From: an uncultured Bacteroidota bacterium
Lineage (GTDB): Bacteria; Bacteroidota; Bacteroidia; Flavobacteriales_F; PHOS-HE28
Assembly (NCBI GenBank): GCA_902825795.1
Contig: CADECG010000002.1
Location: 15,541-79,540 of the forward strand
Direction of reading: 5' to 3'
Length of the DNA stretch: 64,000 bases
The position numbers were made by a program, and so were the translations under genes. The notes beneath the pieces are model-generated. The model did no database searches and was not told where the DNA came from. It saw only the letters and a list, made by a program, of their open reading frames with translations. This document shows, one piece after another, positions 847-47,724 of this stretch; the stretch's first letter is position 1, and the number at the start of each line of letters is the position of its first letter.

Positions 847-2943
847 TCAGCGTGCAACTTCGACCGTGTCCGCACGTGCGAACTCTTGGCCAAAGCATGG
901 GAAAACAACCGCTAGCATGGCATCCCTCAACTCCGTTCGCTTCGCATTCACTTGCCTCCGTGCCTTGTCCGTAGCCAACCAATCGAAGTAACGTGCCTCG
1001 TCCAACAAGTCGCGTTCGAGCCTACCTCGTGTACGCAGCATCTGGCGCAGCCCGTTCTCATCCACCGGTTGAAGTGTAGCCGTGATCTCCGCTTTACCAT
1101 TCACGCTCGTAGTGAAAGCGAACTGCTGCTTACCCTTCATTCCTAAACAGAACAGGTCGTAGTTGAAGATGCTGTTCAGTCGCTCAGTGAAACCGCCCGA
1201 GCCTTCCTTCATGCGCTGGTAGCTGTTCAGTTGGTTCGGGATGAGGTACACGACTAGCTCGTCAAAGCTCGCGCGGTCCGCGACTTCCACAATCAGCGGT
1301 GTATAGGTCAGCGTTGCTGTCTTACCGGTCTTATCATCGGTGTAGCTCATGCTGCTGCGCGTAGTCGTGGCTTGTAGCACGGCCTTGTCAACGTTCCACC
1401 AACCGGTGTTGTTCACGGGCACGACCCAAGCTGAGCGGGGCAACTGCACGCGTTTGTATCCGAGCTGCTTGTACACCGTGTCCAGGTTCGCAGCGAATTC
1501 CTTCTCGAAGAGCTCGCCTTCACGAACGCTCTCGGCCGTTGCATGGTCGGCACGCTTGGCATCGCTTTTCACATCCTGCTTCCATTGCGCGCGCCAGAAT
1601 TTCTCCTGGGTCTGCCGAATGGCTTCGGCCTCCGCGCGGCTGTTGTTCTCGTAGAACGCTCGCAAGCGATCGGCGGCATGAGCAGGAAGCTCCACGCGTC
1701 CATTATTCCGCTCAGCGAAGTGGTCGAACTCGGGGTAACCCATTGCTCCAACCTGTTGATCGATCACGCTCAAGTCCTGATCCAAATTGTTCACGTAAGC
1801 GTCGAGGGCCGCGTTATAGCATGTGCCGTGCAACGCGCGCATACGTTCTTCGAACTGCTTTGTCGCGAGGTTGGTGTTGTTGAAGCGCGCGTTCCAAATG
1901 GCCTTGATCTTGGCGGGGTCGATTTCAGCCCTCAAACTATACCTCCGCAACAGGGAGTCTGCCTCACTGTAATATGCTGTATCCTCGACAAGGCGTTCGC
2001 CAAAGAACTGCGGACCCGGCTTTTCTCTCGAATACAGCAGCCCTCCTGATCCTTGCATTGAGAACGAGTAGTACAAACTATCCTTGAACGCTTTGTTCGT
2101 CACATCCTGCCCAAGTTCCGCGAGCTTGGCTTCATAACCCGGCGGATAGAAATTGAGCGTGGTGATATCCACCGGTACCAAGGACTTCTTCAGCGGCTGC
2201 GGGTTGCGCCAGTCGATGATCCCATCATCGCGTTTAACACCTTGGTAGAGTTGCATGTCATCTTGCCTATCGATCGCAGGGACCATTGCGGTGAGCGGTT
2301 TCTCCGGATCGATCTTCACCGGCTTCCCGTTCGCTTGCGCATCGAAGTAGAACATGCCACCGGTTTCGAGCAGCGTGTCGCCGCTAATGGTGCTGAGACC
2401 CGCTTTCATGATGTCCAGCGGATCGAATGCTTCCAGCATGGTGACGCGCACTGGCGTTGTTATCGCCACGCCGAGACTGTCCACGAACGCGCCCTGCGGG
2501 ATGTCGAGCACAACGCCATTCGGTGTAACGAGCGTGGTGTCCTTCGTCGGGTCGATGGTGAGGACGAGCGGATCAAGGCGTGTACCTGTAGTATCTGTTA
2601 GCACACGATACGCCTGCGCATCGATCGGCGAACCATCGGCACCCAGCTTCGCGTCGTTCGATGTCCATAGGAACAAGGCTGCGGTGGAGGCGATGAGCAC
2701 AGTTGCTCCCACACCGGCCCAAGGCGCCCACTTGCTCCACATGTGTTTGCGATAAGCCTTCTTCGCTGCTGCACGTGCGGGTGAGCGACGGGCGGCGCGG
2801 CGTAAGCGCTGTTGGTCTTCCACGAGTGCCGTCAACTCGTCGCTGTTGCGCATGCGCTCCTCGAAGGCCGCGCGGTCGGTGCTGTTCATGGTGCCGTCCA
2901 AGTAGTTGTCCACCAGTTCCATCAAATGCAGTTGGTCGCGCAT
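847..2943 (-). CDS. ECF-sigma-associated anti-sigma-like membrane protein with a large (~650 aa) periplasmic domain of unknown function
   Basis: N-terminus 'MRDQLHLMELVDNYLDGTM...' is paralogous to the 9187-10134 protein, followed by one TM helix (WAPWAGVGATVLIASTAALFLW). Start ATG lies 2 nt after the stop of the upstream sigma gene. The long C-terminal region has no motif I can name. Confidence 0.6.
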   Translation of the reverse strand: MRDQLHLMELVDNYLDGTMNSTDRAAFEERMRNSDELTALVEDQQRLRRAARRSPARAAAKKAYRKHMWSKWAPWAGVGATVLIASTAALFLWTSNDAKLGADGSPIDAQAYRVLTDTTGTRLDPLVLTIDPTKDTTLVTPNGVVLDIPQGAFVDSLGVAITTPVRVTMLEAFDPLDIMKAGLSTISGDTLLETGGMFYFDAQANGKPVKIDPEKPLTAMVPAIDRQDDMQLYQGVKRDDGIIDWRNPQPLKKSLVPVDITTLNFYPPGYEAKLAELGQDVTNKAFKDSLYYSFSMQGSGGLLYSREKPGPQFFGERLVEDTAYYSEADSLLRRYSLRAEIDPAKIKAIWNARFNNTNLATKQFEERMRALHGTCYNAALDAYVNNLDQDLSVIDQQVGAMGYPEFDHFAERNNGRVELPAHAADRLRAFYENNSRAEAEAIRQTQEKFWRAQWKQDVKSDAKRADHATAESVREGELFEKEFAANLDTVYKQLGYKRVQLPRSAWVVPVNNTGWWNVDKAVLQATTTRSSMSYTDDKTGKTATLTYTPLIVEVADRASFDELVVYLIPNQLNSYQRMKEGSGGFTERLNSIFNYDLFCLGMKGKQQFAFTTSVNGKAEITATLQPVDENGLRQMLRTRGRLERDLLDEARYFDWLATDKARRQVNAKRTELRDAMLAVVFPCFGQEFARADTVEVAR

Positions 2944-2945
2944 GA

Positions 2946-3521
2946 TCAGATGGTTTTGGTGTTGGACAGCAGCACGCGGTACTTCTCTCGCGCCTGTTCG
3001 AGGCACTTGTATTTGCGGGTCTTCGCGGCACCCTCGCCGGCATAACCGAAAGCTTGTGCGATGGTTGCGAGCGGCTCAGCATTCAGGTAGAACCGTGTCA
3101 ACAGCTCGCGGCATTTCTCTCCCAACGAAGCGAAGGCGCGCTCGGCGAGGTGCATCAATGGCTCCTCGTTGTTGGTTGCTGGTTCTTCGTTGTTCGGCTG
3201 GGCGGTAAGGGCCGAGATGTGCTTCTCGGCTTTTCCTTTCACGCGCAATTCGGCCAACCACAGGTTGCGGCAGATGCCGTAGAGGTACGCGGCCAATGAG
3301 CCGGAGAACGCGAAGCCTACATCCTGCGCTTTCTCGTGGATGATAACCAGCGCATCTTGGAAGAGGTCGCGTGCTTCGGTGCGACTTCCACCGTGGGTGC
3401 GCACCATGGTCTGGATATCGGACAGTTGTCGATAGAGCTGGGTGAAGGCCTGTTCAGCCCTCCCATCGCGCATCGCCGCGAGCAGTTCCGCGTCGTTCAT
3501 CGGGGTGGTCTTTGCCTTCAT
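2946..3521 (-). CDS. RNA polymerase ECF-type sigma-70 factor
   Basis: Sigma-70 region 2 and region 4 like motifs ('DLFQDALVIIHEKA', 'GEGAAKTRKYKCLEQAR'). Paralogous to 10131-10730. Start chosen by alignment with that paralogue. Confidence 0.8.
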   Translation of the reverse strand: MKAKTTPMNDAELLAAMRDGRAEQAFTQLYRQLSDIQTMVRTHGGSRTEARDLFQDALVIIHEKAQDVGFAFSGSLAAYLYGICRNLWLAELRVKGKAEKHISALTAQPNNEEPATNNEEPLMHLAERAFASLGEKCRELLTRFYLNAEPLATIAQAFGYAGEGAAKTRKYKCLEQAREKYRVLLSNTKTI

Positions 3522-3654
3522 GTGCAGCAAAGAACGAAAGGTGACCCCATTGCGCGGATCTTTCATGTACGAGTGCCGCAAAGCCGTGGTTCTTCATCCG
3601 GAACAGCAACCACAGAGGGATATTTCCCGTCCTTCGCGTCATCACATTCCCATG

Positions 3655-4380
3655 AGGCATTTCATCACTCTCGCCGCGCTCCTCGCTTGCGCACTGACCA
3701 AGCTGCACGCGCAGCGAAGCGACGCCACCTCACCCGATCCGCACAAGTGGTACTTCGCTTCCGGCGGTGAGTGGATCCTATCGTATGCGCTGATCGATGT
3801 GAACGGCAACGACAAGGGGTCGATCCCACGGTTCTCGCCGTTCTTCAACCTGCAGCGTGTTGCGAACTACGACCTCAATGAGCACTTCGGGTTCTTCGTT
3901 GGGCTTTCCCTGCGCAACGTCGGGTTCATCTACGATGTGCCCGACACCACATTGCGCTACAAGTTCCGCACGTACACCTTGGGGTTGCCCGTCGGTTTCA
4001 AGGTGGGCACCATGGGCAAGGGCCTGTTGTTCGTGGGCTACGAATTGGAACTGCCGTTCAACTACAAGGAGAAACGTTTCGAGAACGAGAAGAAGGAAGA
4101 CAAATTCAATGTGTGGTTCAGCGATCGCAACGAACCGCTCTTCCACACCGTGATGCTGGGCTACCAACTACCCAAAGGCACCTGCATCAAATTCAAATAT
4201 TACATCACGAACTTCCACAACGAGGACTTCAAAGAGAACAGGGACGGCGTGGAGTACAAACCCTACAACGGCTTCCGGTCGAACATCCTCTATGTGTCGC
4301 TCGGCTTCAAGTTGTTCCAGAAGGAGAACTACAACCTGACCCCGCAAGCGGCAGAGATCAAGGAAGCTTCGCTGTACTAG
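3655..4380 (+). CDS. hypothetical outer-membrane beta-barrel-like protein
   Basis: Signal peptide 'MRHFITLAALLACALTKLHAQ'. Alternating hydrophobic/aromatic beta-strand pattern and a C-terminal aromatic residue. The ORF-track 5' extension lies antisense inside the sigma gene and was rejected. Confidence 0.55.
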   Translation, partial: RHFITLAALLACALTKLHAQRSDATSPDPHKWYFASGGEWILSYALIDVNGNDKGSIPRFSPFFNLQRVANYDLNEHFGFFVGLSLRNVGFIYDVPDTTLRYKFRTYTLGLPVGFKVGTMGKGLLFVGYELELPFNYKEKRFENEKKEDKFNVWFSDRNEPLFHTVMLGYQLPKGTCIKFKYYITNFHNEDFKENRDGVEYKPYNGFRSNILYVSLGFKLFQKENYNLTPQAAEIKEASLY

Positions 4381-6740
4381 CGTACCGCTGACCTGTCCGG
4401 CTCTTCACCCTCTTCGCGCAGGAGCACGCCGCCGTTCCGGGCCCTATCGGCCCGCTCGCTCAGTATCCGCTCCAGTTCCTCCTTGCGGCGCAGCACACGC
4501 GCAAAGCGCTGACGGTTCAGCAGCAAGCCGATGAGCACGAGCAATACTGCAGCCAACGTGATCGACCACCACCTCATGTACCACGGCGCCAACACCCCGA
4601 AGTGCAAGAGGTCCTGTATGTCGCCATCGGCACCGGGCAGCATCACTTGCAACGTGTAGCGCCCAGCAGGCAATCGTACCGCTTGGATATGTCCGTTATC
4701 GGGCACCGGCAGCGGCTGCTGTTCCAACCCTGCGAAGCGGTATTGCAGTTGCAGGTTGCGTACATCGCCCCAGAACGGAATGCTCACCTCCACGTCGATC
4801 GCAGCATCGGTGTCCAACGGAGCCAGTTGCTCGGAGCGATCCACGGCAATACCATTGACGCGAAGCGCGTCCACTCGCACTCTTCCACGCGGCCATGGGT
4901 CGTCCACGTGGTCCGGATGGAACCAGACCAAGCCATCGATGGTGGGCAACACCAGATGCCCGTTGGCCAAATGGGCGTGGGTGGGACTGCATCCACCGTT
5001 GAATTCCAATGTGCTCACGCCCGATCGGGGACCGTGGAATGCGTACTGGAAAAGCGCTGTGGTGTCTTGCAGGTAGCGCTCCACCGCACGGCCCTCTGCG
5101 CGGAACAACCCACGGTTGGTAGGTAGCCAGAGCCAACCGTTCAGGTCCCGGACAAAAGCATGCACGTGCGAGAGGTCGCGCCGGGGATCGAGCGGGAACG
5201 GAACGATGCGTTCGCCCATGGCGGCGAACGCGCCTTGACCATAGGTACCAACGAACATCCTGTCGCCTTCGCGATGCAGTGCACGTACGAAGATCTCCTG
5301 CAATCCCGGAACCGGCGATATCGTTCCCGTGGACGCGTCGACACTGAAGACGCCCTTGCCCGTAGCGAGCCACAGCGATCCGTTGGGGGCGCGCCGCAAT
5401 GCGAAGACCTGCTCGTGGAAGTCGGCGGCAGTGCGGTTGTACACGACCACCGGCACATCGTGCACGAAGGCCACCACCCCCGCGATACCGGCCACCCAAG
5501 TGGTATCGCCCTCTTGCAGGTACGCCGTAACGAGGCCCGAGGGTGTGACCAGTTCGCGCAAGATCAAGCCGCTCGATCGTTCAATGATCCACACCGTATC
5601 CGAGCGTGATGTCCAGATGCGGTCCTGTGGATCGAGGTGCATAGCGATCCCCTCGGTGGTGCTGGGGAGCAGGGATCCACGCCGGAAGCCTTCAGCATCC
5701 GCCTCCCACCCATCCTGCGTCAGTACACGGGCACTATCGAGTGGCACCAATGCATAGAACGCATCGCCACGTTCATCATCACCACCCTCGGCGCGCACGT
5801 TGGTGCGCAGGTCCATTCGATGATATCGGAACAGTCCTTTGTTGCCCGTGCCTACGAACACGTTGTCGCCCTCCGGCGATACCGATACGGCAAGGACCGA
5901 CGTTCCCTTCGGCAAACCGGTGATGAGCGGAACGAACGCGATCAGGTCCGGGGATCGCGCCTGCAACTCCCACAAAGTATCCGGCGACAGCGCGTATACC
6001 GCTTCCTGCACGGGGTTCCAGAAGAATCGTTGAATGGCCGAAGGATCCGGACCGCCGACCATGGCGACCGGTGAGAGTGTGTGCGTTGCACGATCCGATC
6101 GGTGCAGCATCGCATGGCGGTCCAGCACATGGATGCTACCCCCCAACATGAAGTCCATGTGGTGGGCCGCTTCAACGGCAACCTTCTTCACTGGGCGGAC
6201 ACCCTGATAAATGTGGAGAGCGCCGGGCCCGAGCACAGCCCACTCCAAGCCATCAACTGAAAGCAGCTGATCCTCCCAGCGGACCCAACTCGCCAGCGCG
6301 GTATCGGAAAGCACGTCCCCGACTATCGCGCGGAACGAACCGACCGAAGGCAGCACGCCCGCGATCTTATGTGGTTGCCTACTGAAGCTCCGCCCATCGA
6401 CCAAGCGGCGCGGGCCGTTCTCCTCGATGCGGTACAAGCTGGACAATACATCCATCACCAACAACTCGTTGGTCGCACTTCGGAACACATGGGCCATACG
6501 GTCTTCAACTATGGAACTGTCCGTACTGGTGGAGAACACCTTGAAACGGAGCCCATCGAACCGCACCAACCCACCCTCGGAAGTAAGCCACAGATAGCCG
6601 CTGGTATCGAACGCCATGGACCGCACACTGTTCTGCGGAAGTCCGTTGGCGGCGGTGTACTGCTCCACGTGCCACCGGTTCTGGCCGAACACCAAGCACG
6701 TTTGAAAAAGAAACCATGCGACAACGAATGAGCGCACCAT
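4377..6740 (-). CDS. two-component-regulator-propeller / Y_Y_Y domain protein with a C-terminal TM helix and no kinase or receiver output
   Basis: Signal peptide 'MVRSFVVAWFLFQTCLVFGQN'. Repeated 'NGLPQN/SV..MAFD..G.LW' beta-propeller blades. Late TM segment 'WWSITLAAVLLVLIGLLL' is followed by only ~60 aa (coiled/charged). No HisKA/HATPase motifs. Confidence 0.65.
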   Translation of the reverse strand: MVRSFVVAWFLFQTCLVFGQNRWHVEQYTAANGLPQNSVRSMAFDTSGYLWLTSEGGLVRFDGLRFKVFSTSTDSSIVEDRMAHVFRSATNELLVMDVLSSLYRIEENGPRRLVDGRSFSRQPHKIAGVLPSVGSFRAIVGDVLSDTALASWVRWEDQLLSVDGLEWAVLGPGALHIYQGVRPVKKVAVEAAHHMDFMLGGSIHVLDRHAMLHRSDRATHTLSPVAMVGGPDPSAIQRFFWNPVQEAVYALSPDTLWELQARSPDLIAFVPLITGLPKGTSVLAVSVSPEGDNVFVGTGNKGLFRYHRMDLRTNVRAEGGDDERGDAFYALVPLDSARVLTQDGWEADAEGFRRGSLLPSTTEGIAMHLDPQDRIWTSRSDTVWIIERSSGLILRELVTPSGLVTAYLQEGDTTWVAGIAGVVAFVHDVPVVVYNRTAADFHEQVFALRRAPNGSLWLATGKGVFSVDASTGTISPVPGLQEIFVRALHREGDRMFVGTYGQGAFAAMGERIVPFPLDPRRDLSHVHAFVRDLNGWLWLPTNRGLFRAEGRAVERYLQDTTALFQYAFHGPRSGVSTLEFNGGCSPTHAHLANGHLVLPTIDGLVWFHPDHVDDPWPRGRVRVDALRVNGIAVDRSEQLAPLDTDAAIDVEVSIPFWGDVRNLQLQYRFAGLEQQPLPVPDNGHIQAVRLPAGRYTLQVMLPGADGDIQDLLHFGVLAPWYMRWWSITLAAVLLVLIGLLLNRQRFARVLRRKEELERILSERADRARNGGVLLREEGEEPDRSAVR

Positions 6741-7018
6741 GGCAACGGTGGCAGTGGCCTCCATCCGTAGAAAGGTCGAACGTGTGCTCATGCTGTGCCG
6801 TGTCGAATGTCGGGAAGATCCGGTCGTGTAGTTCATCATCGGCCACATGGTGCTTTGCGCATCGGCGATGGCGCACAACAGCATGTCAATAGTCCTCACC
6901 TCCAGCGCTGGCACAGCCCTATACTCACAATACTTTCGGACCTTGCACCATAGCGCTGATCCCGACCGGACGCGATGATGCGGCACAGTTTTCGGGATAT
7001 AGACCTCATGCATGATAC

Positions 7019-7957
7019 GTGCGGCCGATGAACCATAAGCACTCCGTCCTCCACTTCCTCAGGCCCGGAGCATTCGGGCTCAGTTCAGTGTTGATATGCT
7101 TCGCGACATCTCTTCAAGCCCAAGACCGCACCGAGAGGGGATACGCCTTGAACTGGACCGGCGAGCTGCGCGTGGAACCAGGCGCCATCAGCAACGGCAA
7201 GTGGGTGCTGGCCGGGCATAGCATACCGGTGTACGAAGCCGATGGCAAGGACGCGCTTGACCTGTGGAAGAAGGAGTACAAAGCCTTCGGCGCCGAGTTC
7301 AGCGGCAGCAAACCCACCAAGGCGTTGCACGTGCTGGTACCGGCCCTCTCCACAGCACCCATACTGGTGCTGGCCCATGCCACCGATGGCGCGAAACGCG
7401 GACCCGCACGGCTGACGCTGGCGTTCTGTGCGAACGACAGCACACTGCTGGAAACCACCGGCGATGTGGAAAAGGTGATGCACGAATTGGCGGTGCGCTT
7501 GAACCGCGCGGTGATACAACCGCAGGTGGACGAGCAGCAGAAGGTGGTGGACCGGTATGCCGACAAGCTTGCGGGTGCGCAGAAGGACCAAGCACAGGCT
7601 GAGCGGAGAGCGGCCAACGCGAACGACGACTTGGAAGATGCCAAGCGTGACAAGAGCAAGGTGGGCGACAAGCAGGCCGAGCAGCAGCAGGAAGTGGTGA
7701 AACTGCAGAAGCGCTACAACAAAAGCGGCGATGCCGACGACCTGAGGAGACTGACCAAGGCGCAGGCGGAACTGGCCGATCTACAGGAGCGCATGAGCAA
7801 GGAATTGAAGGACGAACAACGGGCGCAAAAGGATGCGAACAAGCGGCAGGACGATGTGCCCGATGCGGAAAAGGACCAGATCGAATACCAGAAGGCGAAG
7901 GAGAAGGCGATCAGCGAGTTGGAGGCGCTGAAGCGCAAACTGGAGGCGGTGCGATGA
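7019..7957 (+). CDS. hypothetical secreted protein with a long C-terminal coiled-coil (Lys/Glu/Gln-rich)
   Basis: Signal peptide 'VLICFATSLQAQ'. C-terminal ~150 aa are heptad-like and charged ('DKLAGAQKDQAQAERRAANANDDLEDAKRDK...'). Confidence 0.5.
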   Translation: MRPMNHKHSVLHFLRPGAFGLSSVLICFATSLQAQDRTERGYALNWTGELRVEPGAISNGKWVLAGHSIPVYEADGKDALDLWKKEYKAFGAEFSGSKPTKALHVLVPALSTAPILVLAHATDGAKRGPARLTLAFCANDSTLLETTGDVEKVMHELAVRLNRAVIQPQVDEQQKVVDRYADKLAGAQKDQAQAERRAANANDDLEDAKRDKSKVGDKQAEQQQEVVKLQKRYNKSGDADDLRRLTKAQAELADLQERMSKELKDEQRAQKDANKRQDDVPDAEKDQIEYQKAKEKAISELEALKRKLEAVR

Positions 7958-8042
7958 GGAGGCACGTTCGCCGAAGGGATCAACGGAATGCGATGGTGTG
8001 CAACGGAAGTCAGGGTCGCGAGCGACTTGGGCAAATGAGCTG

Positions 8043-9134
8043 ATGCGGGCGCTCACTGTGTTTCCTGCCGTTGCGCTGGCTGTTGCACTGGCGCCATTGA
8101 ACAGTGCTGCGCAGGACACTTTGCGCATCGCTCCAGGCAACGGCGGCTTCGACAGCGCGTACGTCATCGACTGCACGCACATGCTCACCACGCGGTTCTA
8201 CGTGAGCAGCAAGTTCAACGCCATGAACATGCGCGATCAGGACATCGGCAGCAACGTGGAGTACCGTCCCAACACCCGCACGAACCTGGGCCTGGGGGCG
8301 AGTTACCGGGCATTGACGCTCAACATCGGCATCGGCTTCCCGTTCCTGAACAGCGACGACAGCCTGCGCGGCAAGACGCGCTACTTCGATGGGCAGGCGA
8401 ACATCTACGGCAGGCGCTGGGTGATCAATCTCTTCGCGCAGGTCTATCGGGGGTACTACATCGATCGGCTCAGTTACCCGGGATCGGCCGGGCAGGACAG
8501 CACTTATCTGCAGATCATGGACAACGAGCGACTGAGGCCCGACATGCGGCAACGCAATCTGGGCGTGAGCGTGATGCACATCTTCGGGAACAGACGGTTC
8601 AGCTACCGCGCGGCGTTCAACCAGGATGCCTGGCAGAAACGTAGCGCGGGATCCATGTTGCTGGGTGGTAACGTGGTGTACCAAGGATTGCGCGCCGACC
8701 ATTCAACGATCCCCATCGCTGTGGACAGTTTGTTCTCGCCCGCTCTCCGCTTCCGGCGCATCGACCAGTTCGAGATCGGCGGCCTGTTCGGATACGCGCA
8801 CACGTTCGTGATCGCGCGACACGTGTTCTTTTCACTCTCCACTTCCGGTGGACTGGGCTTGGCCTACAGCCAGTCGACAACACCGAGCGATGAGGGCGAT
8901 AAGCTGCGTGATGATTGGAGTTTGGCCGTGCGGACGCAAGCCCGCGTGGCAACAGGCTACAACAGCGCCCGCACATACGTGGGCGTGCAATACGTGAACG
9001 AGCAGAGCATCACGAACCTGACGAGCGGTGCGCAATACGGCTGGAACGTGGGCAATTACCGCCTGTTCATCACCTATCGGTTCAAGGCCCGCGTGAAGCC
9101 GGTGGATGCTGTTATGCGGTGGTTCGGCCAGTAG
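8043..9134 (+). CDS. hypothetical outer-membrane protein (possibly DUF4421-like beta-barrel)
   Basis: Signal peptide 'MRALTVFPAVALAVALAPLNSAAQ'. Beta-strand-like composition. C-terminus 'YRLFITYRFKA' is beta-signal-like. Family assignment is from memory only. Confidence 0.5.
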   Translation: MRALTVFPAVALAVALAPLNSAAQDTLRIAPGNGGFDSAYVIDCTHMLTTRFYVSSKFNAMNMRDQDIGSNVEYRPNTRTNLGLGASYRALTLNIGIGFPFLNSDDSLRGKTRYFDGQANIYGRRWVINLFAQVYRGYYIDRLSYPGSAGQDSTYLQIMDNERLRPDMRQRNLGVSVMHIFGNRRFSYRAAFNQDAWQKRSAGSMLLGGNVVYQGLRADHSTIPIAVDSLFSPALRFRRIDQFEIGGLFGYAHTFVIARHVFFSLSTSGGLGLAYSQSTTPSDEGDKLRDDWSLAVRTQARVATGYNSARTYVGVQYVNEQSITNLTSGAQYGWNVGNYRLFITYRFKARVKPVDAVMRWFGQ

Positions 9135-9186
9135 TGATCGGGCCTGCGGCGCGGTTGTGGAAGTCGCGCTGCTTGGTGTGCGCGGA

Positions 9187-10134
9187 TCACTTATCCCGAA
9201 GTCTTTCCCCGAACATCAATGGCACCGTCATCCGGCACCGCGCGGGTTTCCCATTGGTTTTGCATGGCAGCCACTTGGGCATGCCCTTGATCACACGCAC
9301 CGCTTCTTTATCGTGGGCTTCACTGAGGCTTTGCTTCAACTGCACATCGCTGATGCGGCCCAGTTCATCCACCAAGAAATCGACGATCACCGTTCCGCTC
9401 GCATCGCTTTTGGCGATAGGGCGTATGTTCTGCTGCAAGTAGCGGTGCATGGCATCCCAACCGCCTTTGAACATCGGTTCCGTGGTGTTGGAGGGAGGCA
9501 GTACACCAGCAGGTTGACCCAGCAGCGTAACGCTGTCCAACCGGTTGGCGATCTCCTCCTTCGTCAACGCGCGCAGATCACCACCATCCGCCGTTTTGAT
9601 CATCGCCCCGGGGCTTGCCACTTCGCGTTGCTCAACCACTACTGCTCCCTTCGGTATGCTGTCCCAGCTCACGCGCTTTCCGTTCACGGTGGCGACGTAA
9701 ACGGTATCGAACAGCGTGTCGACCTCGGCGCGGTAGTGGGTGGTACGTTCCGTTGATGCACTGTCGGGCGCACGCGCTTCAACGATGGTATCCTGTGGCC
9801 CAGCGATGGGGTCCAATACGTTGGCAACTTGAACAGTATGCGCATCCTCATGTGACAGCAATAGTGTACCGGTAATACCCAGTCCAACGATCACTGCGCT
9901 GCCCGCAACCCATGGCCACCAATTCCCGAAGCGATAAGTGGTGTAGGCCTTGGCCGCCGACATCCGCAGGTTCACACGGTGCATCCCTTCTCGCAACGCC
10001 CGCTGATCGTTCACCACATCGCGCAGCTCTTGGCTACCGGCCATGCGCACCTCGAACGCGCTGCGCTCGTCGGCCTCCATTGTACCATCCAAGTACCGAT
10101 CGGCCAGTTCCAACAGGTGTAGTTCGTCTCTCAT
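9187..10134 (-). CDS. anti-sigma-like membrane protein fused to a TonB C-terminal domain
   Basis: N-terminus 'MRDELHLLELADRYLDGTMEADERSAFEVRM' is paralogous to the 847-2943 protein, followed by a TM helix. C-terminus 'GVLPPSNTTEPMFKGGWDAMHRYLQQNIR...GTVIVDFLVDELGRISDVQL...RVIKGMPKWLPCKTNGKP' is characteristic of the TonB C-terminal domain. Start ATG overlaps the sigma stop (ATGA). Confidence 0.7.
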   Translation of the reverse strand: MRDELHLLELADRYLDGTMEADERSAFEVRMAGSQELRDVVNDQRALREGMHRVNLRMSAAKAYTTYRFGNWWPWVAGSAVIVGLGITGTLLLSHEDAHTVQVANVLDPIAGPQDTIVEARAPDSASTERTTHYRAEVDTLFDTVYVATVNGKRVSWDSIPKGAVVVEQREVASPGAMIKTADGGDLRALTKEEIANRLDSVTLLGQPAGVLPPSNTTEPMFKGGWDAMHRYLQQNIRPIAKSDASGTVIVDFLVDELGRISDVQLKQSLSEAHDKEAVRVIKGMPKWLPCKTNGKPARCRMTVPLMFGERLRDK

Positions 10135-10730
10135 GCTTGCTGTGGTTCCGTGGCGTGCGCCGATGTGTTCATGCGGCGGAAGCGCTTGCGGGCTTCCTCC
10201 AGGCATTTGTACTTCCGTGTCTTCGCCGCTCCTTCACCGGCAAATCCGAGCGACTTCGCGATCTGCATCAGCGGTTCCTTGGTGATGTAGAACCGGCGGA
10301 GGATCTCCAAGCACTTGTCACCTAGGGAGGTGAGCGCCTTTTCGGCCAGTTTGAAACCGCTTTCCTGCGCGAGCAATGCGCCGATATCCGCTGGGTCATC
10401 GGCCGTGTCCTCCACGTCCCATTTGATCAGCGCTTTGTCGCGTCGGCGCAATTCATCGCGCCATAGGTTGCGGCACACGCTATAGAGAAAGGTGCCGATG
10501 GCGGAGGTGAGCACGAAGTCTTCGCACCTCGCCTTGCGGTGGAAGATGATGAGCGCGTCCTGGAACATGTCCTTCGCATCGGCCTTGCTGCCGCTGTTCT
10601 GCCGCACCATCCGTTCCACCATGGGGAGGTGCGCATACAGCTTCACGAAGGCTTGGTGGTCCTTGCCTTGCCGGATGAGTGCGAGGATCTCAGGGTCGCT
10701 CACGTTGGTGCCTTTGGTGGTTGATGGCAA
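10131..10730 (-). CDS. RNA polymerase ECF-type sigma-70 factor
   Basis: Same motifs as 2946-3521 ('DMFQDALIIFHRKA', 'GEGAAKTRKYKCLEEAR'). Translationally coupled to the downstream anti-sigma-like gene. Confidence 0.8.
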   Translation of the reverse strand: MPSTTKGTNVSDPEILALIRQGKDHQAFVKLYAHLPMVERMVRQNSGSKADAKDMFQDALIIFHRKARCEDFVLTSAIGTFLYSVCRNLWRDELRRRDKALIKWDVEDTADDPADIGALLAQESGFKLAEKALTSLGDKCLEILRRFYITKEPLMQIAKSLGFAGEGAAKTRKYKCLEEARKRFRRMNTSAHATEPQQA

Positions 10731-10769
10731 GAACGCCGAAAGGTGACCCCGGAGTGCGCGACCGGTCGC

Positions 10770-12695
10770 TCAGCGGAGCACGATGGGGCCTTCGATGAGT
10801 TCGGGGGTGATGGGCGGGACCGGCTGGACCACGCTGCGCGACGTATCGCCATTGCGCCAGAAACGCCATTGGCGTGGCACCCTTTCCACTTTGATCGGGT
10901 AGATCGTCAAGGATCCGTCCTTGGCCACACGCATGCGCAGGAAGTGCTTGAAGTCCTCGATGCGCAAGGCGCTGAACGCTTCTTCACTGTGGCGACCGAA
11001 CACGTTGATCGAGATCAACAAGTAGATGCCCAGGATCACGCAACCCGCCATCCAACCGCCGCCGAAGATCATGGCAGCCGTGAGCACTGCACCACCGAAT
11101 GTATCGCCCAACAGCAGTGTGGACAGGTTGAACGAACCCCAACCGATATAGAAGATCGCCACCCAGTGCACCGCCCAGTGCAGGGTGCCTGCAACGATCC
11201 TGTAGAGCGTGGAGTGCGTGTCGGTGAATGCAATGAATACCGCCCATAGCCCGAGCATCCAAAGTGCTATGCCCGGCTGCGCTTCGAACTGTTGCAGCGT
11301 GAGTTCCAACGCACGCCACGGATCGGAGACAGCCTTGCCGTTGTACGATGCACCAACAAGCCACGCGGTCATCAAGTACAGGATGGCAGGCAGGATCCCG
11401 GCTTTCGGGTTCTTGAACAGAAAGAGCAGGTTACCCCATGCCAGCCGCGATGAAACAGTAGGAGCGGGATAACACTCCTTCTGGGCGAACGTGCGCGCCT
11501 CGCTTTGGCCGTCCTCCACTGTCTCGGTGATCTCGGACAAGTCTTCCTCGTGGGTCGGATGCAGGAAGGCACCGCCACCGCCGGCAGTGATCTTTTGTAC
11601 CGGTGAACCGGCCGCCGCATAACGGCCAACCTCCTCATGGCGGCGGTAGTGATGCAGATCGCCGGTGAGGTAGAGTTTCACTTCCACGTTGCATGGAGCG
11701 AATACCTGATCGCGCAAGTAGATGAGATCCGTTTCATCGAACACGCGACCCATGGTGCGGTACTTGTACGCGTAGGTCCACACCGGGAGCGAGAGGCACA
11801 ACACCACTTTGTCCCCTGCGGTCATACGTGTCGCCACGGATCGGAAGTACTCGATCTGGCCCGTGTCAAGATCGCTCTGCAACTGCCCATCGCTACCCAA
11901 CAACCACCAGTTGCCCGGTAGCTTCAGCGCGAAGTAGCTGCGCTGCTGCTGTGTGCGCCAACCGGCAAATGCCCGCCCGCCGACGTCGGAACAGAACAGG
12001 CGCGAAAATGCGTTGAGCCCGTCGTACCAATCGTGGTTGCCGGGTATGGCGTACGCCACCGGTTGCTCAAGCGGCTTCGCATCGCCGAAGGCTTTGGTGA
12101 AGGGCATCACCAACCGCCGCTGGTACTCCTCGCGACTGGGCGTGGGATAGACTTCATCGCCGCCGAACAACAACACATCCCCGCGTGGGAGGTCGATGGT
12201 TCCGCCTTTACCATCGGCCACCTTCAATTGTTCCTGCGCTGCGGCGTAGGCGATCGCGTAGGTGGGGTTCCATCCATCGCCGGTGTCGCAGATGAAGTCG
12301 ATCCAGAGTTCATCGCGTTCACGATCAGGGTCCGGTTCCGGCCCAAACTCCCCGTCTTTGAAATAGTGCGTGTGCACGAAAGGCTCCGTGCTCGTGGAAG
12401 CCAATGCGAGCATCAAGCGCCGATCGCTGCGTTCCCCGACGATCAACGAGAACAGTGTTTTCACGCCTGTGCGCAACAACTGACCGGGATCGAACCAACC
12501 CACCATTGGCATGCGTTGCTCCCTACGCTTGGAAGCTACATGCAAGGCGCTCGCAACCGGCTTACTGATGAGCCGTTTGATCACAGGCAGTGCTGCACGC
12601 TGCCGAGCGTTCTTCTCGTCAGGGGATGCGTTCTCCTCCGGGACTTCGGGATCCATGCGCTGAAAAGTAGCAGCGGACGGACAACAGAACGACAA
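10770..12695 (-). CDS. calcineurin-like metallophosphoesterase fused to a C-terminal multi-pass membrane domain
   Basis: Metallophosphoesterase motifs 'GDTGDG', 'GGDEVY', 'GNHDWYDG', 'GDLHHYRRHE'. The C-terminal ~200 aa contain 5-6 hydrophobic helices. Confidence 0.7.
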   Translation of the reverse strand: MSFCCPSAATFQRMDPEVPEENASPDEKNARQRAALPVIKRLISKPVASALHVASKRREQRMPMVGWFDPGQLLRTGVKTLFSLIVGERSDRRLMLALASTSTEPFVHTHYFKDGEFGPEPDPDRERDELWIDFICDTGDGWNPTYAIAYAAAQEQLKVADGKGGTIDLPRGDVLLFGGDEVYPTPSREEYQRRLVMPFTKAFGDAKPLEQPVAYAIPGNHDWYDGLNAFSRLFCSDVGGRAFAGWRTQQQRSYFALKLPGNWWLLGSDGQLQSDLDTGQIEYFRSVATRMTAGDKVVLCLSLPVWTYAYKYRTMGRVFDETDLIYLRDQVFAPCNVEVKLYLTGDLHHYRRHEEVGRYAAAGSPVQKITAGGGGAFLHPTHEEDLSEITETVEDGQSEARTFAQKECYPAPTVSSRLAWGNLLFLFKNPKAGILPAILYLMTAWLVGASYNGKAVSDPWRALELTLQQFEAQPGIALWMLGLWAVFIAFTDTHSTLYRIVAGTLHWAVHWVAIFYIGWGSFNLSTLLLGDTFGGAVLTAAMIFGGGWMAGCVILGIYLLISINVFGRHSEEAFSALRIEDFKHFLRMRVAKDGSLTIYPIKVERVPRQWRFWRNGDTSRSVVQPVPPITPELIEGPIVLR

Positions 12696-21351: not shown

Positions 21352-22425
21352 CTATGGGCCAATTCTGCCCAACGCCTGTTCCGCATAAAACCCGCCACCA
21401 GCAGCAATGGTCATGAACACCGGACGAGCTGCGAGGGTTCCCTGCGAGCGCTCGGTGCTGAGCGCTTGATACCACAGCGCTTCTTGGTCGAAGGTGCCAA
21501 CCGGGTGGATGGCTGCCCGAGCGAAGTAGCGTTCGGCTTTCTTGTACAGCCCAAGATTGTAGCAGGAGAGACCGGCATAGAACAGCGCGTTGATGTCATC
21601 GGGATATTGGGCGAGCACGGTGCGCAGTTCAGTAAGTGCGCGCTTGTGATCATTGCGTGCGAACGCGGCAAGTGCCACATCGAAGTGATCGAGGTATTGT
21701 ACCGGTCTGGTTTCAGGTTCCGCAGCGGCTTGGTCTTCAGGGGAAGCGAAGCGGGCACTCACGCCCAAGTCCTTGATGGGCGGCGGGTTGTCGCCATACA
21801 GTTCATTCGGGTGTACAAGCTTGAGGTTGTGCAGGAAAACCAATTGGCGGGAGTCGAGGACAACGCTCGAACTGCGCACCACCACGGTATCAACCGGCTT
21901 TGGTAATTGAACACGCACCGGTAGTTCGGCAAGTTGAATGGTGTCACGTTGCACCACTACTTCATCGGCTTTCAGGGGTGGTTTGCTCAGCGTTGGTTCA
22001 TGACCGATCTGTTGGCTCGGAAGGATCTGTACGGCGGCGATGATCTCGTTCTCGGTGGGCAATTGGATCGCGTTCGGTGCGCTGTCGACCAGGGGCGCAG
22101 TGCCATCGACATCCGTTGCACCCTCGATGTTCCCGGTTGTCAGCAACGCTTCATCGTCATGACTGGGGAGCAGCCAGGGCAATACGCTGATGAGGACAAC
22201 AACACCCACGACCAACGCTGGTCGCAACCAATTCGCTCCACGCGCACTTCCCATCGGCTTCTCCAATTCCGGCAATGGAGCCTTGGAAGCTGCTGACCCT
22301 TCAACCGCCTCACGACAGAGTTCACACCGTTCCAAGTGCAACTCCACCGCATGTGCCTCGGCACCCAGCACATGGCCATGTGCATAGCGCTCCAATAGCG
22401 TTCGGGACAGGTGTTCCATGATCAT
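21352..22425 (-). CDS. anti-sigma factor (zf-HC2 type) with TM helix and C-terminal TPR-like domain
   Basis: 'H..ELHLERCELCREAVE' putative zinc-finger motif. TM 'ALVVGVVVLISVLPWLL'. TPR-like 'ALFYAGLSCYNLGLYKKAERYFARA'. Start overlaps the sigma stop (ATGA). Confidence 0.7.
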   Translation of the reverse strand: MIMEHLSRTLLERYAHGHVLGAEAHAVELHLERCELCREAVEGSAASKAPLPELEKPMGSARGANWLRPALVVGVVVLISVLPWLLPSHDDEALLTTGNIEGATDVDGTAPLVDSAPNAIQLPTENEIIAAVQILPSQQIGHEPTLSKPPLKADEVVVQRDTIQLAELPVRVQLPKPVDTVVVRSSSVVLDSRQLVFLHNLKLVHPNELYGDNPPPIKDLGVSARFASPEDQAAAEPETRPVQYLDHFDVALAAFARNDHKRALTELRTVLAQYPDDINALFYAGLSCYNLGLYKKAERYFARAAIHPVGTFDQEALWYQALSTERSQGTLAARPVFMTIAAGGGFYAEQALGRIGP

Positions 22426-23012
22426 GGTGCGTTATGCGCTGTTCGTCCTGACGTGTTGCTTGTGCCGCGCTCCAGGATGATACGCAGGTTGCGCCGACCG
22501 TTCTGGAGGTTACTGCGCACGGCGTCGAAAGCGATGTTCAAGCGTTCGCCGACTTCGGCATAACTGAGCCGGTCGAGGTAGAACAGTTTGATGCAATCGC
22601 GCTGGTGTTCTGTCAGTTCATCGATGGCGTGTTCCATTCGGCGCAATAGGTCTTCGTTCTCCAAGTGCGCGGCCAGCAGATCATCGGCTTCATCGTGCTG
22701 GGTCCCGTTCAGTTCCGTCAACGGTTTTGCGCCGCGTAATTGCATCAGACAATGGTTACGCATCACAGTGTGCAACCAGGCCCCGGTGTTGCGCACCTCG
22801 TGGCGCTTGATCAGCGATGGCAGCTCGGCGAACACGTTCATCACGGCATCCTTCGCGGTCTCCGCGTTCTTGAGATACTTCATGCCCACGGCAAAAAGCA
22901 GGTGGGCGTACCTGTCCCAGAGTACGCCCAGCGCATCGGAGCGGCCGGCCTTGATCGCCAAGACCAATTCCTCATCGCTACTTGCTTGCTGCTGTTTCCG
23001 CCGTAGGAACAT
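22422..23012 (-). CDS. RNA polymerase ECF-type sigma-70 factor
   Basis: Region 2 ('YAHLLFAVGMKYL', 'AKDAVMNVF') and region 4 ('LSYAEVGERLNIAFDAVRSNLQNGRRNL'). Confidence 0.8.
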   Translation of the reverse strand: MFLRRKQQQASSDEELVLAIKAGRSDALGVLWDRYAHLLFAVGMKYLKNAETAKDAVMNVFAELPSLIKRHEVRNTGAWLHTVMRNHCLMQLRGAKPLTELNGTQHDEADDLLAAHLENEDLLRRMEHAIDELTEHQRDCIKLFYLDRLSYAEVGERLNIAFDAVRSNLQNGRRNLRIILERGTSNTSGRTAHNAP

Positions 23013-23906
23013 TCACTGTTTTGGTTGCTCCAAAGGTGGCTGCTCCAGCCCTTGTTCCGGCTTCTTCTCCGGGTCGCCGTCTTTGGTCTCCTCCTTCACT
23101 TCCTCTGGCTTCTTCTCTTCCAGCTGTTGCTGTTCCAACGCTTCCTGCGCCTGGCGGGCATCGTACTCGCGGCGCAACTGCATGGCGCGCTCCTGTGCCC
23201 ACAATTCTTGGTACGTCTTGGTCTCGATCACCACCACACCACCGGTAACGTCGCCGTACTTGGCCGGAAGCCCACCGGTATACACCGTAACGCTGCTGAT
23301 GGCGCTGCTCGGGACCCGTGGCAGTCGTCCGGCAATGCGCACGCCATCCACAAAGCTCGCCATGTTCTCGGTGCGGCTGCCCTTGAAGTGCAGGCCTTCG
23401 TTATCGCGCGAAGCAGTGATGCCGGTGAAGTTGGTCGTCATGAATTTCACCGGGTTCTTGACGTTCGGGTCGTTCTTCATTTCGCTTGCGAGCAACGTCT
23501 GCCTTCCCGGGTCCGCTTCATCGATCAATGGCCGCCGGTTGACATAATCAGCCTTCACCTTCTTCTTGAACACAACAAGCTCCTTCGCTGCCAACACCAG
23601 CGTGAAGTTGAGTTTCGTGTGCTGATCGGAAATGACGCTGACGGGCTCCGGCGAGTTCGATGTGAACGTATTCGCAGATGCGGTAACACTGTATGTCCCC
23701 GTCGGCAAGGGCTTCAACACATATCGACCTTGCTCATCAGTGGTGGTGCTGATGGTGCCGTTGGGAAGTGCGATCGATACGGTCGCGAACGGTATCGGCT
23801 TGCTTTCCTCATCGAGCACTTTGCCGCGTATTTCGCCCATGCTCTGGGCGTTGGTAACCAATGCGCTAATCGCAAAGGCTAGAGGAAGGAGAATTCCGTG
23901 TCCCAT
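23013..23906 (-). CDS. barrel-less TonB-dependent-receptor N-terminus (carboxypeptidase-regulatory-like domain + plug domain) with an acidic low-complexity C-terminal tail
   Basis: Signal peptide. 'IRGKVLDEESKPIPFATVSIALPNGTISTTTDEQGRYVLKPLPTGTYSVTAS' is CarbD_reg-like. 'FKGSRTENMASFVDGVRIAG...ISSVTVYTGGLPAKYGDVTGGVVVIETK' is plug-like. It then ends in ~70 aa of E/K/Q/P-rich sequence. The stop abuts the sigma start codon. Confidence 0.6.
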   Translation of the reverse strand: MGHGILLPLAFAISALVTNAQSMGEIRGKVLDEESKPIPFATVSIALPNGTISTTTDEQGRYVLKPLPTGTYSVTASANTFTSNSPEPVSVISDQHTKLNFTLVLAAKELVVFKKKVKADYVNRRPLIDEADPGRQTLLASEMKNDPNVKNPVKFMTTNFTGITASRDNEGLHFKGSRTENMASFVDGVRIAGRLPRVPSSAISSVTVYTGGLPAKYGDVTGGVVVIETKTYQELWAQERAMQLRREYDARQAQEALEQQQLEEKKPEEVKEETKDGDPEKKPEQGLEQPPLEQPKQ

Positions 23907-25077: not shown

Positions 25078-25157
25078 ACTTCTTCTTTCCTGCGACCAAG
25101 GTGCCCATTGGTGCGCTTGGCGATGTTGGTTATGCTCACTCAACAGGAAAAGAAGGC

Positions 25158-27374
25158 ATGCACTCAAGAAGATCGATCGCAATACTGCTCATAGCGATGG
25201 GCGGGCTCCCCGCAGTTGCGCAGGAGGTTAGTGGTACCGTGCGCGGCCGCAAAGCGGATGGATCGGTGGTGGTCCCGTTCGGCAACGTGAACTGGGCGGG
25301 AACGACCATTAGCACAACGGCTGATGATGCCGGTCGATTCTCGATCGCCGCGCCTTCATGGCCGGGCAGGCTGATCGCCAGTGCAACGGGCTACTCCAAC
25401 GATACGTTGGTATTCACTGAAGCGCCCTCGGGTGCCGTGGCGTTCGTTCTGGAGCCGGTGATCGAACTCGGCGCAGCGCGGATCATCGAGCGTGTACAAG
25501 GCACGCTGCTGGACACCCGGAGCACCGTGAACGGGGAACGCATCGGACAGAAAGAGCTCAAGCGCGCGGCGTGCTGCGACCTGAGCGAGAGCTTCGAGAC
25601 GAACGCAACGGTGGATGTGAGCTACGCGGATGCGGTGAGCGGCACCAAAGCGATCAAGATGCTCGGACTGGACGGCAAGTACGCGCTCATCAGTGTGGAG
25701 AACATCCCTTTTCTGCGCGGCCTCAGCAGCAGCTATGGGCTCACGTTATTGCCCGGTCCGTGGATCCTTGGCATAAACGTGAGCAAGGGCACAGGCCCGG
25801 TCGTGAACGGCTACAGTAGCATGACCGGCCAGATCGACCTCTCGCTGTTACAACCCAGCAGTGCGGAACCGCTATTCGTCAACCTGTATGGCAACGCACA
25901 GGGCCGTTACGAAGCCAATGTGCATTCAGCCCAACGTCTCGACACCGCGTGGCACAACCTGTTGATGGTCCATGCGAACTTCAACGAGACCGAACTGGAC
26001 AACAACAAGGATGGCTTCTTGGACAACGTGTTGAACAAGCGCATCAATATCCTCGACAGGGTGGAATACCAAGGTGACGGCAGCGATGCACACGTTGGCG
26101 TGCGGTACGTTTTCGATGAACGACGTGGCGGACAAGTCTCGCGTGATGAGGACGTGGGGCCTGCGATCCCGCGCTACCGCGTGGGTATCACGAACGAACT
26201 GATCGATGTCTTCGCCAAGGGTGGCTTCGTGTTCAAGAACAACGCAACACGGAGCATTGGCCTGATCGGCAACTACCGGCAACACACGCTTGATGCGCAA
26301 TTCGGGAACCGTGACCACACCGGCTTGGAGCACAGTGGTTCGTTCAGTGCCATTTTCCAGCAGCTGCTGCGCGATGGCAACGACCAAGTGAAAGCAGGGC
26401 TCACCTTCAACTACGCTGACTTTACGGAACAATACATCGACAGCACCTTTGGCCGTACCGAGCGCATACCGGGTGCCTTCGCCGAACACACGTTGAAGCG
26501 CGGAAGCTTCACCGCAGTGAGCGGTCTCCGGTTCGACATGAACGACCACTACGGCAATTTCCTGTCACCGCGGTTGCACTTGAAGTATGATCTGGGCCCA
26601 CTCACCGCATTGCGTGCCTCAGCTGGCAGCGGCTGGCGCAGTGCGAACCCATATGTTGAGAATGCCTCTGCTTTGGCCAGCTCGCGCACGGTGATCGTGG
26701 AAGAGGACCTTCGCGCCGAGCGCAGTTGGAACGTCGGTGTGGCCCTCACGCACAAATTCAAATGGATGCAACGCAAGTGGGCGTTCAACGTCGATGCGTA
26801 CCGCACGGAATTCACGGATCAAGCGGTGGCGGATATGGACGCCAGCGCGCATGAACTCCGGCTGTACAACCTGCGCGGAACGTCATACGCGACCACGGTA
26901 CAAACCGATCTACAGGTGGAACTTATTCGTCCATTGCAGTTGAAAGTGGCCTACCGGTGGTACGATGCACGCACCACTTACAGTGGACGACTGCTTTCGC
27001 GACCCTTCGTGCCCGAGCATCGCGCCATGGCCGATCTCGCCTTTACCAGTCCGGACGAGAAGTGGCGCTTTGACATCACACTGAACTGGTTCGGCACAAG
27101 CCGTCTGCCCGACTTGTCGGACAATACCAGCGCACACCACTTCAGCGAACACGCACCTGACTACACCTTGCTGCATGCGCAGTTGAGCCGCGTGCTCGGC
27201 GCGCTCGAACTCTACCTTGGATGCGAGAACATCACCGACTTCATGCAGCATCCGCAGATCATCGCACCCGAGCAGCCGTTCGGCCCGGACTTTGACGCCA
27301 GCATCATTTGGGGACCGACCAATGGACGCATGTTCTATGGCGGCCTACGTTACACACTGAAAAAGAAAAAGTAA
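25158..27374 (+). CDS. TonB-dependent receptor
   Basis: Signal peptide. CarbD_reg-like N-domain. Plug ('DLSESFETNATVDVSYADAVSGTKAIKMLGLDGKYALI'). ~550-aa barrel ending 'FYGGLRYTLKKKK'. Confidence 0.85.
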   Translation: MHSRRSIAILLIAMGGLPAVAQEVSGTVRGRKADGSVVVPFGNVNWAGTTISTTADDAGRFSIAAPSWPGRLIASATGYSNDTLVFTEAPSGAVAFVLEPVIELGAARIIERVQGTLLDTRSTVNGERIGQKELKRAACCDLSESFETNATVDVSYADAVSGTKAIKMLGLDGKYALISVENIPFLRGLSSSYGLTLLPGPWILGINVSKGTGPVVNGYSSMTGQIDLSLLQPSSAEPLFVNLYGNAQGRYEANVHSAQRLDTAWHNLLMVHANFNETELDNNKDGFLDNVLNKRINILDRVEYQGDGSDAHVGVRYVFDERRGGQVSRDEDVGPAIPRYRVGITNELIDVFAKGGFVFKNNATRSIGLIGNYRQHTLDAQFGNRDHTGLEHSGSFSAIFQQLLRDGNDQVKAGLTFNYADFTEQYIDSTFGRTERIPGAFAEHTLKRGSFTAVSGLRFDMNDHYGNFLSPRLHLKYDLGPLTALRASAGSGWRSANPYVENASALASSRTVIVEEDLRAERSWNVGVALTHKFKWMQRKWAFNVDAYRTEFTDQAVADMDASAHELRLYNLRGTSYATTVQTDLQVELIRPLQLKVAYRWYDARTTYSGRLLSRPFVPEHRAMADLAFTSPDEKWRFDITLNWFGTSRLPDLSDNTSAHHFSEHAPDYTLLHAQLSRVLGALELYLGCENITDFMQHPQIIAPEQPFGPDFDASIIWGPTNGRMFYGGLRYTLKKKK

Positions 27375-47527: not shown

Positions 47528-47724
47528 CGTGTGCCGGGCTTCCATGAAAGGGCGCCAAATGTAGCCTTGTCCCAACGCTGGAAACCTGATGCTACCGGCA
47601 CCGGAGCGTTAAGGCTGCATCCGTGTGATGAACAGCAAGACTTGCGTAACACTGCATGGGGGCACGTCCCACGCGCGTACCTGCGCGCGATACCTTCGAC
47701 AGCTTTTTCCGCCCCCTGACCCAC

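Follow-up and report, generated by a model that had tools for sequence, protein, structure and literature searches.

An extracytoplasmic function sigma factor gene coupled to a probable anti-sigma factor with a TonB-fold periplasmic domain in an uncultured Flavobacteriales bacterium

The DNA analysed here (the window) is a stretch of 64,000 nucleotides from contig CADECG010000002.1 (assembly GCA_902825795.1) of an uncultured bacterium of the Flavobacteriales, in the Bacteroidota. On its reverse strand, a gene for a sigma factor of the extracytoplasmic function (ECF) type, here called sigma-1 (10131..10703), is followed immediately by a gene for a protein of 315 residues (9187..10134). Computation shows the latter to be, as a prediction, a single-pass protein of the inner membrane with its N-terminus in the cytoplasm, in which a domain of anti-sigma type is followed by one transmembrane helix, a long periplasmic linker, and a C-terminal domain with the fold of TonB_C. 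We propose that the two genes probably form an ECF sigma/anti-sigma switch, despite the TonB names that proteins of this kind carry in the databases.

Sigma-1 belongs among the ECF (group IV) sigma-70 factors. It matches Sigma70_r2 of Pfam (E=1.1e-8) and TIGR02937, the ECF sigma model (52.5 bits against a cut-off of 42.9, covering residues 27-182), with no separate Pfam call for region 4. The longest open reading frame starts at TTG 10730 and would give 199 residues. This start was rejected: the TTG falls within a conserved promoter-like motif (described below) and the alignments of orthologues begin at residue 9-10 of the long frame, so that GTG 10703, giving 190 residues, is the likely start. 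The sigma stop codon and the ATG of the 315-residue protein overlap as ATGA, and we take the two genes to be co-transcribed. A longer frame for the second gene, from ATG 10206 (339 residues), was likewise rejected, since every homologue starts with MRDEL, at 10134.

Full-length homologues of the 315-residue protein (n=20, about 20 clusters, 31-94% identity) come from uncultured Flavobacteriales genomes, where they are annotated as 'TonB family protein'. The most conserved part in their alignment is the predicted cytoplasmic domain, residues 1-70 (9925..10134, reverse strand). AlphaFold predicts helices here at residues 2-16, 21-33 and from 35 onward, with predicted local distance difference test (pLDDT) scores of 72-84. 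A profile of the N-terminus has a sole match in the PDB, anti-sigma-K factor RskA (4nqw_B, E=0.019, residues 4-58 against RskA 6-62), and Foldseek returns RslA, RskA and MucA at probabilities of 0.75-0.93 but with E-values of about 0.5 or higher. The Pfam family zf-HC2 stays below threshold (E=0.13; E=0.017 for an orthologue). The Hx3Cx2C zinc motif is missing from all 143 relatives, the equivalent positions in the window protein being R30, S34 and L37, and this places the domain with the zinc-free class-I type. That motif is the mark of the ZAS subgroup alone, RskA and RseA also being without it (PMC7406223). We take the first 70 or so residues to be a probable zinc-free class-I (RskA-like) anti-sigma domain with a putative role in sigma binding, and hold this as part of the switch reading set out below.

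The single transmembrane helix lies at residues 72-94 (9853..9921, reverse strand), where the Kyte-Doolittle hydropathy reaches its maximum for the protein (1.88, at residues 75-94). Four Arg/Lys residues flank it on the N-terminal side and an acidic HED stretch on the C-terminal side, and an N-in topology is therefore predicted. The helix is among the least conserved segments in the homologue alignment, with P74 alone invariant. It is followed by the periplasmic linker, residues 95-218 (124 residues; 9481..9852, reverse strand), which is predicted to be disordered, the AlphaFold pLDDT being below 50 at residues 93-189 and 199-213. Its length resembles that of the periplasmic spacer of E. coli TonB. 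Its composition (6.5% proline; 22.6% proline, serine and threonine together, against 16.8% for the whole protein) does not fit a rigid TonB-like spacer rich in these residues, which was rejected, and differs from that of the proline-rich rod in enterobacterial TonB. The otherwise variable linker keeps one motif in the homologue alignment, DTVYVATxNGKRVSWDSxPKGA, at residues 141-166 (9637-9714, reverse strand). It is recognisable in members just 39% or so identical overall, and could be a contact site for a protease or a partner.

The C-terminal domain, residues 219-310 (9205..9480, reverse strand), is assigned to the TonB_C fold by Pfam, AlphaFold, Foldseek and profile comparison. PF03544 (TonB_C) matches residues 242-308 (E=5.9e-11; 43.1 bits against a cut-off of 24.6), and TIGR01352 matches the protein at 28.8 bits (cut-off 27.1). 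AlphaFold models residues 222-310 with pLDDT 80-91, and the top PDB matches found by Foldseek are TonB C-terminal domains, the first being 6i97_D (E=9.5e-4, probability 1.0); this one, 2gsk_B and 2grx_C were all solved in complex with transporters. A profile of the family's TonB_C domains also finds, in the PDB, TonB C-terminal domains from P. aeruginosa and H. pylori (E=9e-5 to 5e-4). The family profile was required for this, a single-sequence phmmer search with the domain giving E=1.4 at best. The last β-strand, RCRMTVPLMF, is conserved in the family, and F253, W288 and F308 align with what we take to be the core residues F180, W213 and F230 of E. coli TonB.

An earlier note on this DNA had described the coupling of an ECF sigma factor with an anti-sigma-like protein that has a periplasmic TonB_C domain, and had asked for a hidden Markov model search with PF03544. 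The domain, the fold, the topology and the adjacency of the two genes at all 25 related loci compared (below) agree with that description, and its ATGA overlap, single transmembrane helix and C-terminal TonB-C fold of about 90 residues are all borne out, the search itself giving the above-threshold match just cited. Two details need amendment. The cytoplasmic N-terminus is indeed paralogous to that of the protein encoded at 847-2943, but it extends to about 70 residues and not 50; and the spacer called rich in proline, serine and threonine is so weakly, not markedly.

What is constant in this family is the coupling to the sigma gene. At 25 of the 25 related loci compared, the sigma gene ends no more than about 30 nucleotides from the anti-sigma start, or overlaps it, whatever periplasmic domain follows, and its product is 40-95% identical to sigma-1. 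More distant members occur in the Crocinitomicaceae, and in cultured Paracrocinitomix mangrovi the sigma gene overlaps that of WP_221832485.1, which is labelled 'energy transducer TonB'. The 75-residue N-terminal module was also used as a profile in an exhaustive search, in place of a word-indexed one that had given only 6 short fragments. It found 1546 representative proteins at E<=1e-3, 137 of them at E<=1e-10. Pfam domains were surveyed in 93 of the best 150 relatives. TonB_C is the most frequent (26/93), and the other matches are to zf-HC2 (8), cytochrome c (8), CHU_C (4), RseA_N (2) and DUF4880 (2), many of the relatives having no match to any of these families. The zf-HC2, RseA_N and DUF4880 matches favour an anti-sigma identity for the shared module. 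TonB_C is present or absent in both types of paralogue, short (290-350 residues) and long (700-890 residues). An N-terminal module joined to varied periplasmic domains is as expected for anti-sigma sensor domains.

A second group, from the Chitinophagaceae (Niastella, Ferruginibacter, Terrimonas) and amounting to at least 169 protein clusters, combines CarboxypepD_reg with a TonB_C end. Here, at each of the 4 loci compared (L042, L046, L047 and L048 in our numbering), the TonB_C-ending protein comes directly after an ECF sigma gene, in a trio made up of the sigma gene, a single-pass CarboxypepD_reg/TonB_C protein of about 450 residues, and a DUF2911 protein. Pfam gives no anti-sigma match on the N-termini of this group or of the distant relatives, and it is the gene position that suggests a possible anti-sigma role for the Chitinophagaceae protein. 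The earlier note had wondered how common such fusions are beside ECF sigma genes: the family survey and this separate group together indicate that the architecture of TonB_C after sigma is recurrent in Bacteroidota. A literature search, which took in work on the classification of ECF sigma and anti-sigma factors, found no description of an anti-sigma/TonB_C fusion, and suggests that a TonB-fold input domain on an ECF anti-sigma factor is a variant of a known switch for which we found no prior description.

The sigma gene is also preceded by a conserved sequence, shared with a second, paralogous sigma gene in the window (sigma-2, described below). Before sigma-1 the motif reads GGGGTCACC TTT-N12-CATCAA (10721..10750, reverse strand) and lies within the gap of 66 nucleotides that follows the stop codon of the upstream gene; before sigma-2 it lies at 3519-3548 (reverse strand), with GGGGTCACCTTTCGTTC... 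at 3546-3530. The form common to both is GGTCACCTTT-N12-CATCAA, or, written as a bipartite element, GGGTCACCTTT-N12-CATCAA, and it begins 45-50 nucleotides upstream of each probable start codon. The consensus GGT[CTG]AC[CA]TTT-N12-CAT[CT][AT]A stands ahead of the sigma gene in each related locus for which upstream DNA is available (L001, L003, L005-L027, L043 and L044) and persists in the low-GC P. mangrovi; the motif ahead of sigma-2 is conserved in L001, L003, L006, L011, L013 and L014. When up to one mismatch is allowed, it occurs in the window at two sites alone, both ahead of sigma genes, other GGTCACCTT matches falling within coding sequence. A scan of 8900-10950 for sigma-70 promoters and intrinsic terminators gave nothing exceeding chance. 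The motif is probably an autoregulated ECF promoter common to both paralogues, and could serve to define the regulon.

It is worth asking whether the protein could be the energy transducer that its relatives' names imply. The SxxxH membrane-anchor motif, which was defined in E. coli and couples TonB to ExbB/ExbD, is absent from the transmembrane helix, and the homologue alignment shows no conserved Ser or His there. At the site of the YP motif the window protein reads N-I-R-P-I; its close family has R-P or R-V-P and never tyrosine, and next to this site its subclade has a deletion of three residues relative to the TonB_C domains of Bacteroidales. The canonical YP form is kept by more distant members of the same anti-sigma family, including the P. 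mangrovi protein. The ancestral fusion probably carried a transporter-competent TonB_C, with the window copy as a derived form. YP (Y163-P164 in E. coli) is described as the most conserved feature of TonB and is kept by all eleven B. thetaiotaomicron homologues; its tyrosine makes contact with BtuB and FecA, and P. aeruginosa TonB1 is inactivated when this residue is mutated (PMC10350073). The proline-rich spacer is not universal, being absent from the B. thetaiotaomicron TonBs (PMC10350073). Neither the window nor the gene tables read for the loci of three relatives contain ExbB, ExbD or a canonical TonB gene. Many real tonB genes are unlinked to exbBD. On these features, the 315-residue protein looks like a signalling protein and not an energy transducer.

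The paralogous pair lies further along the same strand. Sigma-2, with its upstream motif, occupies 2946..3548 (reverse strand); the coding part is 2946-3500, with ATG 3500 as the probable start, and the product is 46% identical to sigma-1. The start of the longest open reading frame, TTG 3581, is probably wrong, lying within or upstream of the promoter-like motif. Anti-sigma-2 (847..2943, reverse strand; 698 residues) has the same N-terminal module and transmembrane helix, the N-termini of the two paralogues being 43% identical over 98 residues, helix included (E=3e-16). In this genome it is without TonB_C, and its periplasmic region of about 600 residues has no Pfam match. An orthologue of 813 residues in CP064979.1 (L001, 13418-15859) is 71% identical to it up to residue 685, and beyond that point continues into a canonical, YP-containing TonB_C (E=4.4e-17). 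Versions of the long paralogue without TonB_C, of 714-771 residues, are found in other genomes.

The order of genes around the two pairs is conserved: gldB, an outer-membrane β-barrel gene, nadE, (a metallophosphoesterase-like membrane protein), sigma-1 and anti-sigma-1 are followed by a variable stretch, and then by sigma-2, anti-sigma-2 and pyruvate:ferredoxin oxidoreductase. At the related loci compared, the conserved neighbours include neither a TonB-dependent transporter nor any other candidate for a partner, and within the window more than 12 kb separates the pair from the nearest transporter-like genes. In the window the two modules are separated by four genes (3442-9134), which encode a 312-residue protein, an 878-residue Reg_prop protein, a 312-residue Lys/Glu-rich coiled-coil-like protein and a DUF4421 protein. 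These are common only to the closest genome (L004); elsewhere the modules are closer together, or in direct tandem (L006). The closest orthologue of the 315-residue protein, which is in that same genome (L004, 6001-6944; 86% identical), has an apparent frameshift after about codon 20. The genome is a long-read metagenome assembly, and the frameshift is probably an assembly error and not the sign of a pseudogene.

The window holds a third, unrelated ECF sigma gene at 22422-23012 (reverse strand; within 21352-23906), in which regions 2 and 4 are both detected. Directly downstream of it is a gene for a 357-residue TPR protein, and directly upstream one for a 297-residue CarboxypepD_reg/Plug protein that resembles a truncated TonB-dependent receptor; the same arrangement occurs in L001. 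A full-length TonB-dependent receptor is encoded near this third sigma locus, at 25101-27374 (forward strand). Further on, an open reading frame of 2802 residues (47656-56064, forward strand) has no Pfam match at E<=1e-3, and is followed by a gene for an 826-residue protein (56083-58563, forward strand) with PKD and CHU_C domains, the latter a type IX secretion signal.

Taken together, these features argue that sigma-1 and the 315-residue protein are probably an autoregulated two-gene ECF sigma/anti-sigma switch, in which the TonB-fold domain is a periplasmic docking or sensor module. In such a switch the N-terminus would hold the sigma factor at the membrane, while the tethered TonB_C would extend towards the peptidoglycan or the outer membrane. 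There it may dock onto a putative partner by the edge-strand pairing (β-augmentation) typical of the TonB/TolA C-terminal fold, the candidate partners being the TonB box of a transporter, another exposed peptide, or the cell wall. A change in docking would then lead to regulated proteolysis, with a site-1 cleavage followed by that of an intramembrane site-2 protease, a step to which the Gly/Ser/Pro-rich membrane helix would be suited. Once freed, the sigma factor would use the GGTCACCTTT-N12-CATCAA promoter to transcribe its own operon, along with a putative regulon.

Several observations weigh against this proposal. The sequence likeness of the N-terminus to known anti-sigma domains is marginal, as the RskA match at E=0.019 and the sub-threshold zf-HC2 match indicate. 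The AlphaFold model of the whole protein is of low confidence (mean pLDDT 60.7). No further gene bearing the promoter-like motif is found in the window or in some 450 kb of related loci. Finally, with the YP tyrosine lacking in this subclade and three adjacent residues deleted, the manner of binding seen in TonB may be lost, and the domain may bind nothing in that way.

The main idea of the earlier note is a special case of the switch just described, namely that TonB_C binds the TonB boxes of ligand-loaded TonB-dependent transporters, so that the anti-sigma factor reads transporter occupancy directly, without a FecR-type domain or a signalling domain on the transporter. The homology of the domain to those solved with transporters is in its favour, as is the conservation of the last β-strand, the partner of the TonB box in those complexes; the tether has sufficient length to cross the periplasm, and other members have the canonical YP form, including the orthologue of anti-sigma-2 and the P. 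mangrovi protein. However, the conserved flanks (nadE, the metallophosphoesterase-like membrane protein, pyruvate:ferredoxin oxidoreductase) include no transporter, the transporter-like genes of the window are distant, and the subclade has R-P or R-V-P in place of a motif whose tyrosine is the transporter contact (PMC10350073). The domain is moreover dispensable in many members of the family. We therefore regard a dedicated reading of transporter TonB boxes as possible but rather unlikely. A broader form, in which TonB_C was recruited as an anti-sigma input that reads exposed TonB boxes or similar unfolded N-terminal peptides on outer-membrane proteins, strikes us as more doubtful still. If true, such a route would need no FecR, no transporter signalling domain and no energy from ExbB/ExbD, and would help to account for the excess of 'TonB' paralogues in Bacteroidota, part of which it would explain.

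It is equally conceivable, and in our view about as unlikely as the reading of occupied transporters, that TonB_C is not a ligand sensor but a passive anchor to the peptidoglycan or the outer membrane. The switch would then report the integrity or spacing of the envelope, with proteolysis set off by strain on the tether or by a lost anchorage. The C-terminal domain of TonB has been proposed to bind peptidoglycan, and an anchor would sit well with a long linker predicted to be disordered, with a degenerate transporter-contact motif, and with a conserved neighbourhood that contains no specific partner gene. Against this, identity in the domain is 31-94% and many residues that are candidates for the surface are invariant, a pattern that suggests a specific interaction.

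The two remaining explanations concern the protein as a whole. It might not be an anti-sigma factor, but an envelope protein co-transcribed with the sigma gene and regulated by its product, or a positive regulator like FecR. The marginal N-terminal likeness noted above would allow this. We nevertheless consider it improbable, given that tight translational coupling is universal in the family, that the N-terminal module is both its most conserved part and co-duplicated with the sigma factor (the paralogous pairs being 43% and 46% identical), and that the predicted fold matches RskA, RslA and MucA. Least probable of all is the alternative raised in the earlier note, a working TonB paralogue, energised by ExbB/ExbD, that would also sequester the sigma factor through its extended cytoplasmic end: the layout (N-in, one transmembrane helix, long spacer, TonB_C) and the database names would suit it, but the poorly conserved helix without SxxxH, the missing YP tyrosine, the lack of ExbB/ExbD in the window and the three relatives' tables, and a TonB_C that is optional, unlike the constant anti-sigma module and sigma linkage, all go against it.

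The anti-sigma reading bears on how such proteins are named. Many Bacteroidota proteins carry the labels 'energy transducer TonB' or 'TonB family protein', and one group of them is most likely made up of anti-sigma factors, because of the constant ECF sigma coupling, the conserved cytoplasmic module, the conserved promoter motif and the loss of TonB hallmarks. For the family of anti-sigma factors with TonB_C, this would correct a systematic annotation error and enlarge the anti-sigma repertoire by a new sensor domain. In Bacteroidota, a class-I anti-sigma neighbour is recognisable for only about 6% of ECF sigma genes (PMC7406223). Should TonB_C prove to read the TonB boxes of transporters, cell-surface signalling would have a new and simpler form. 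The system is directly testable, since a homologous pair is present in cultured P. mangrovi (WP_221832485.1) and a putative promoter has been defined.

Among characterised systems, SigK/RskA of M. tuberculosis (4nqw) offers the clearest parallel for the cytoplasmic side: an ECF sigma factor and an adjacent single-pass anti-sigma factor whose N-terminal helical domain has no Hx3Cx2C. The sequence likeness to RskA is only marginal, the window protein has TonB_C on a predicted-disordered tether instead of the RskA C-terminal domain, and its host is a Gram-negative bacterium of the Flavobacteriales. FecI/FecR/FecA shares the layout of an ECF sigma factor and a single-pass regulator. In Fec-type systems, the regulator binds the sigma factor by its cytoplasmic N-terminus, its periplasmic C-terminus contacts the outer-membrane transporter, and release is by regulated proteolysis involving RseP (PMC9249621). 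There TonB is a separate third player, whereas the window protein has no FecR or DUF4880 match, Pfam giving TonB_C alone, and neither in the window nor among the conserved neighbours does a transporter with a signalling domain lie beside it.

With TonB itself (E. coli, P. aeruginosa; 6i97, 2gsk, 2grx, 1u07) the window protein has its topology and C-terminal fold in common, but it has an anti-sigma domain of 70 residues in place of the short N-terminal tail of TonB, neither SxxxH nor a proline-rich spacer, a replaced YP tyrosine with the adjacent three-residue deletion, and a gene that is coupled to a sigma gene and not to exbBD. Among the B. thetaiotaomicron homologues, TonB1 and TonB10 carry M56/BlaR1 peptidase domains and TonB7 and TonB11 carry CarboxypepD_reg; those with extra domains are reported as functionally uncharacterised, several being near transcriptional regulators (PMC10350073). 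Like the window protein they have TonB_C appended to a signalling-type or other N-terminal scaffold, but they keep YP and none is described as an anti-sigma factor. The Chitinophagaceae operon (Niastella caeni, Ferruginibacter profundus) differs in its unrelated N-terminus without a Pfam match, its extra CarboxypepD_reg and its conserved DUF2911 neighbour, yet shares with the window pair a single-pass protein ending in TonB_C and encoded directly downstream of an ECF sigma factor.

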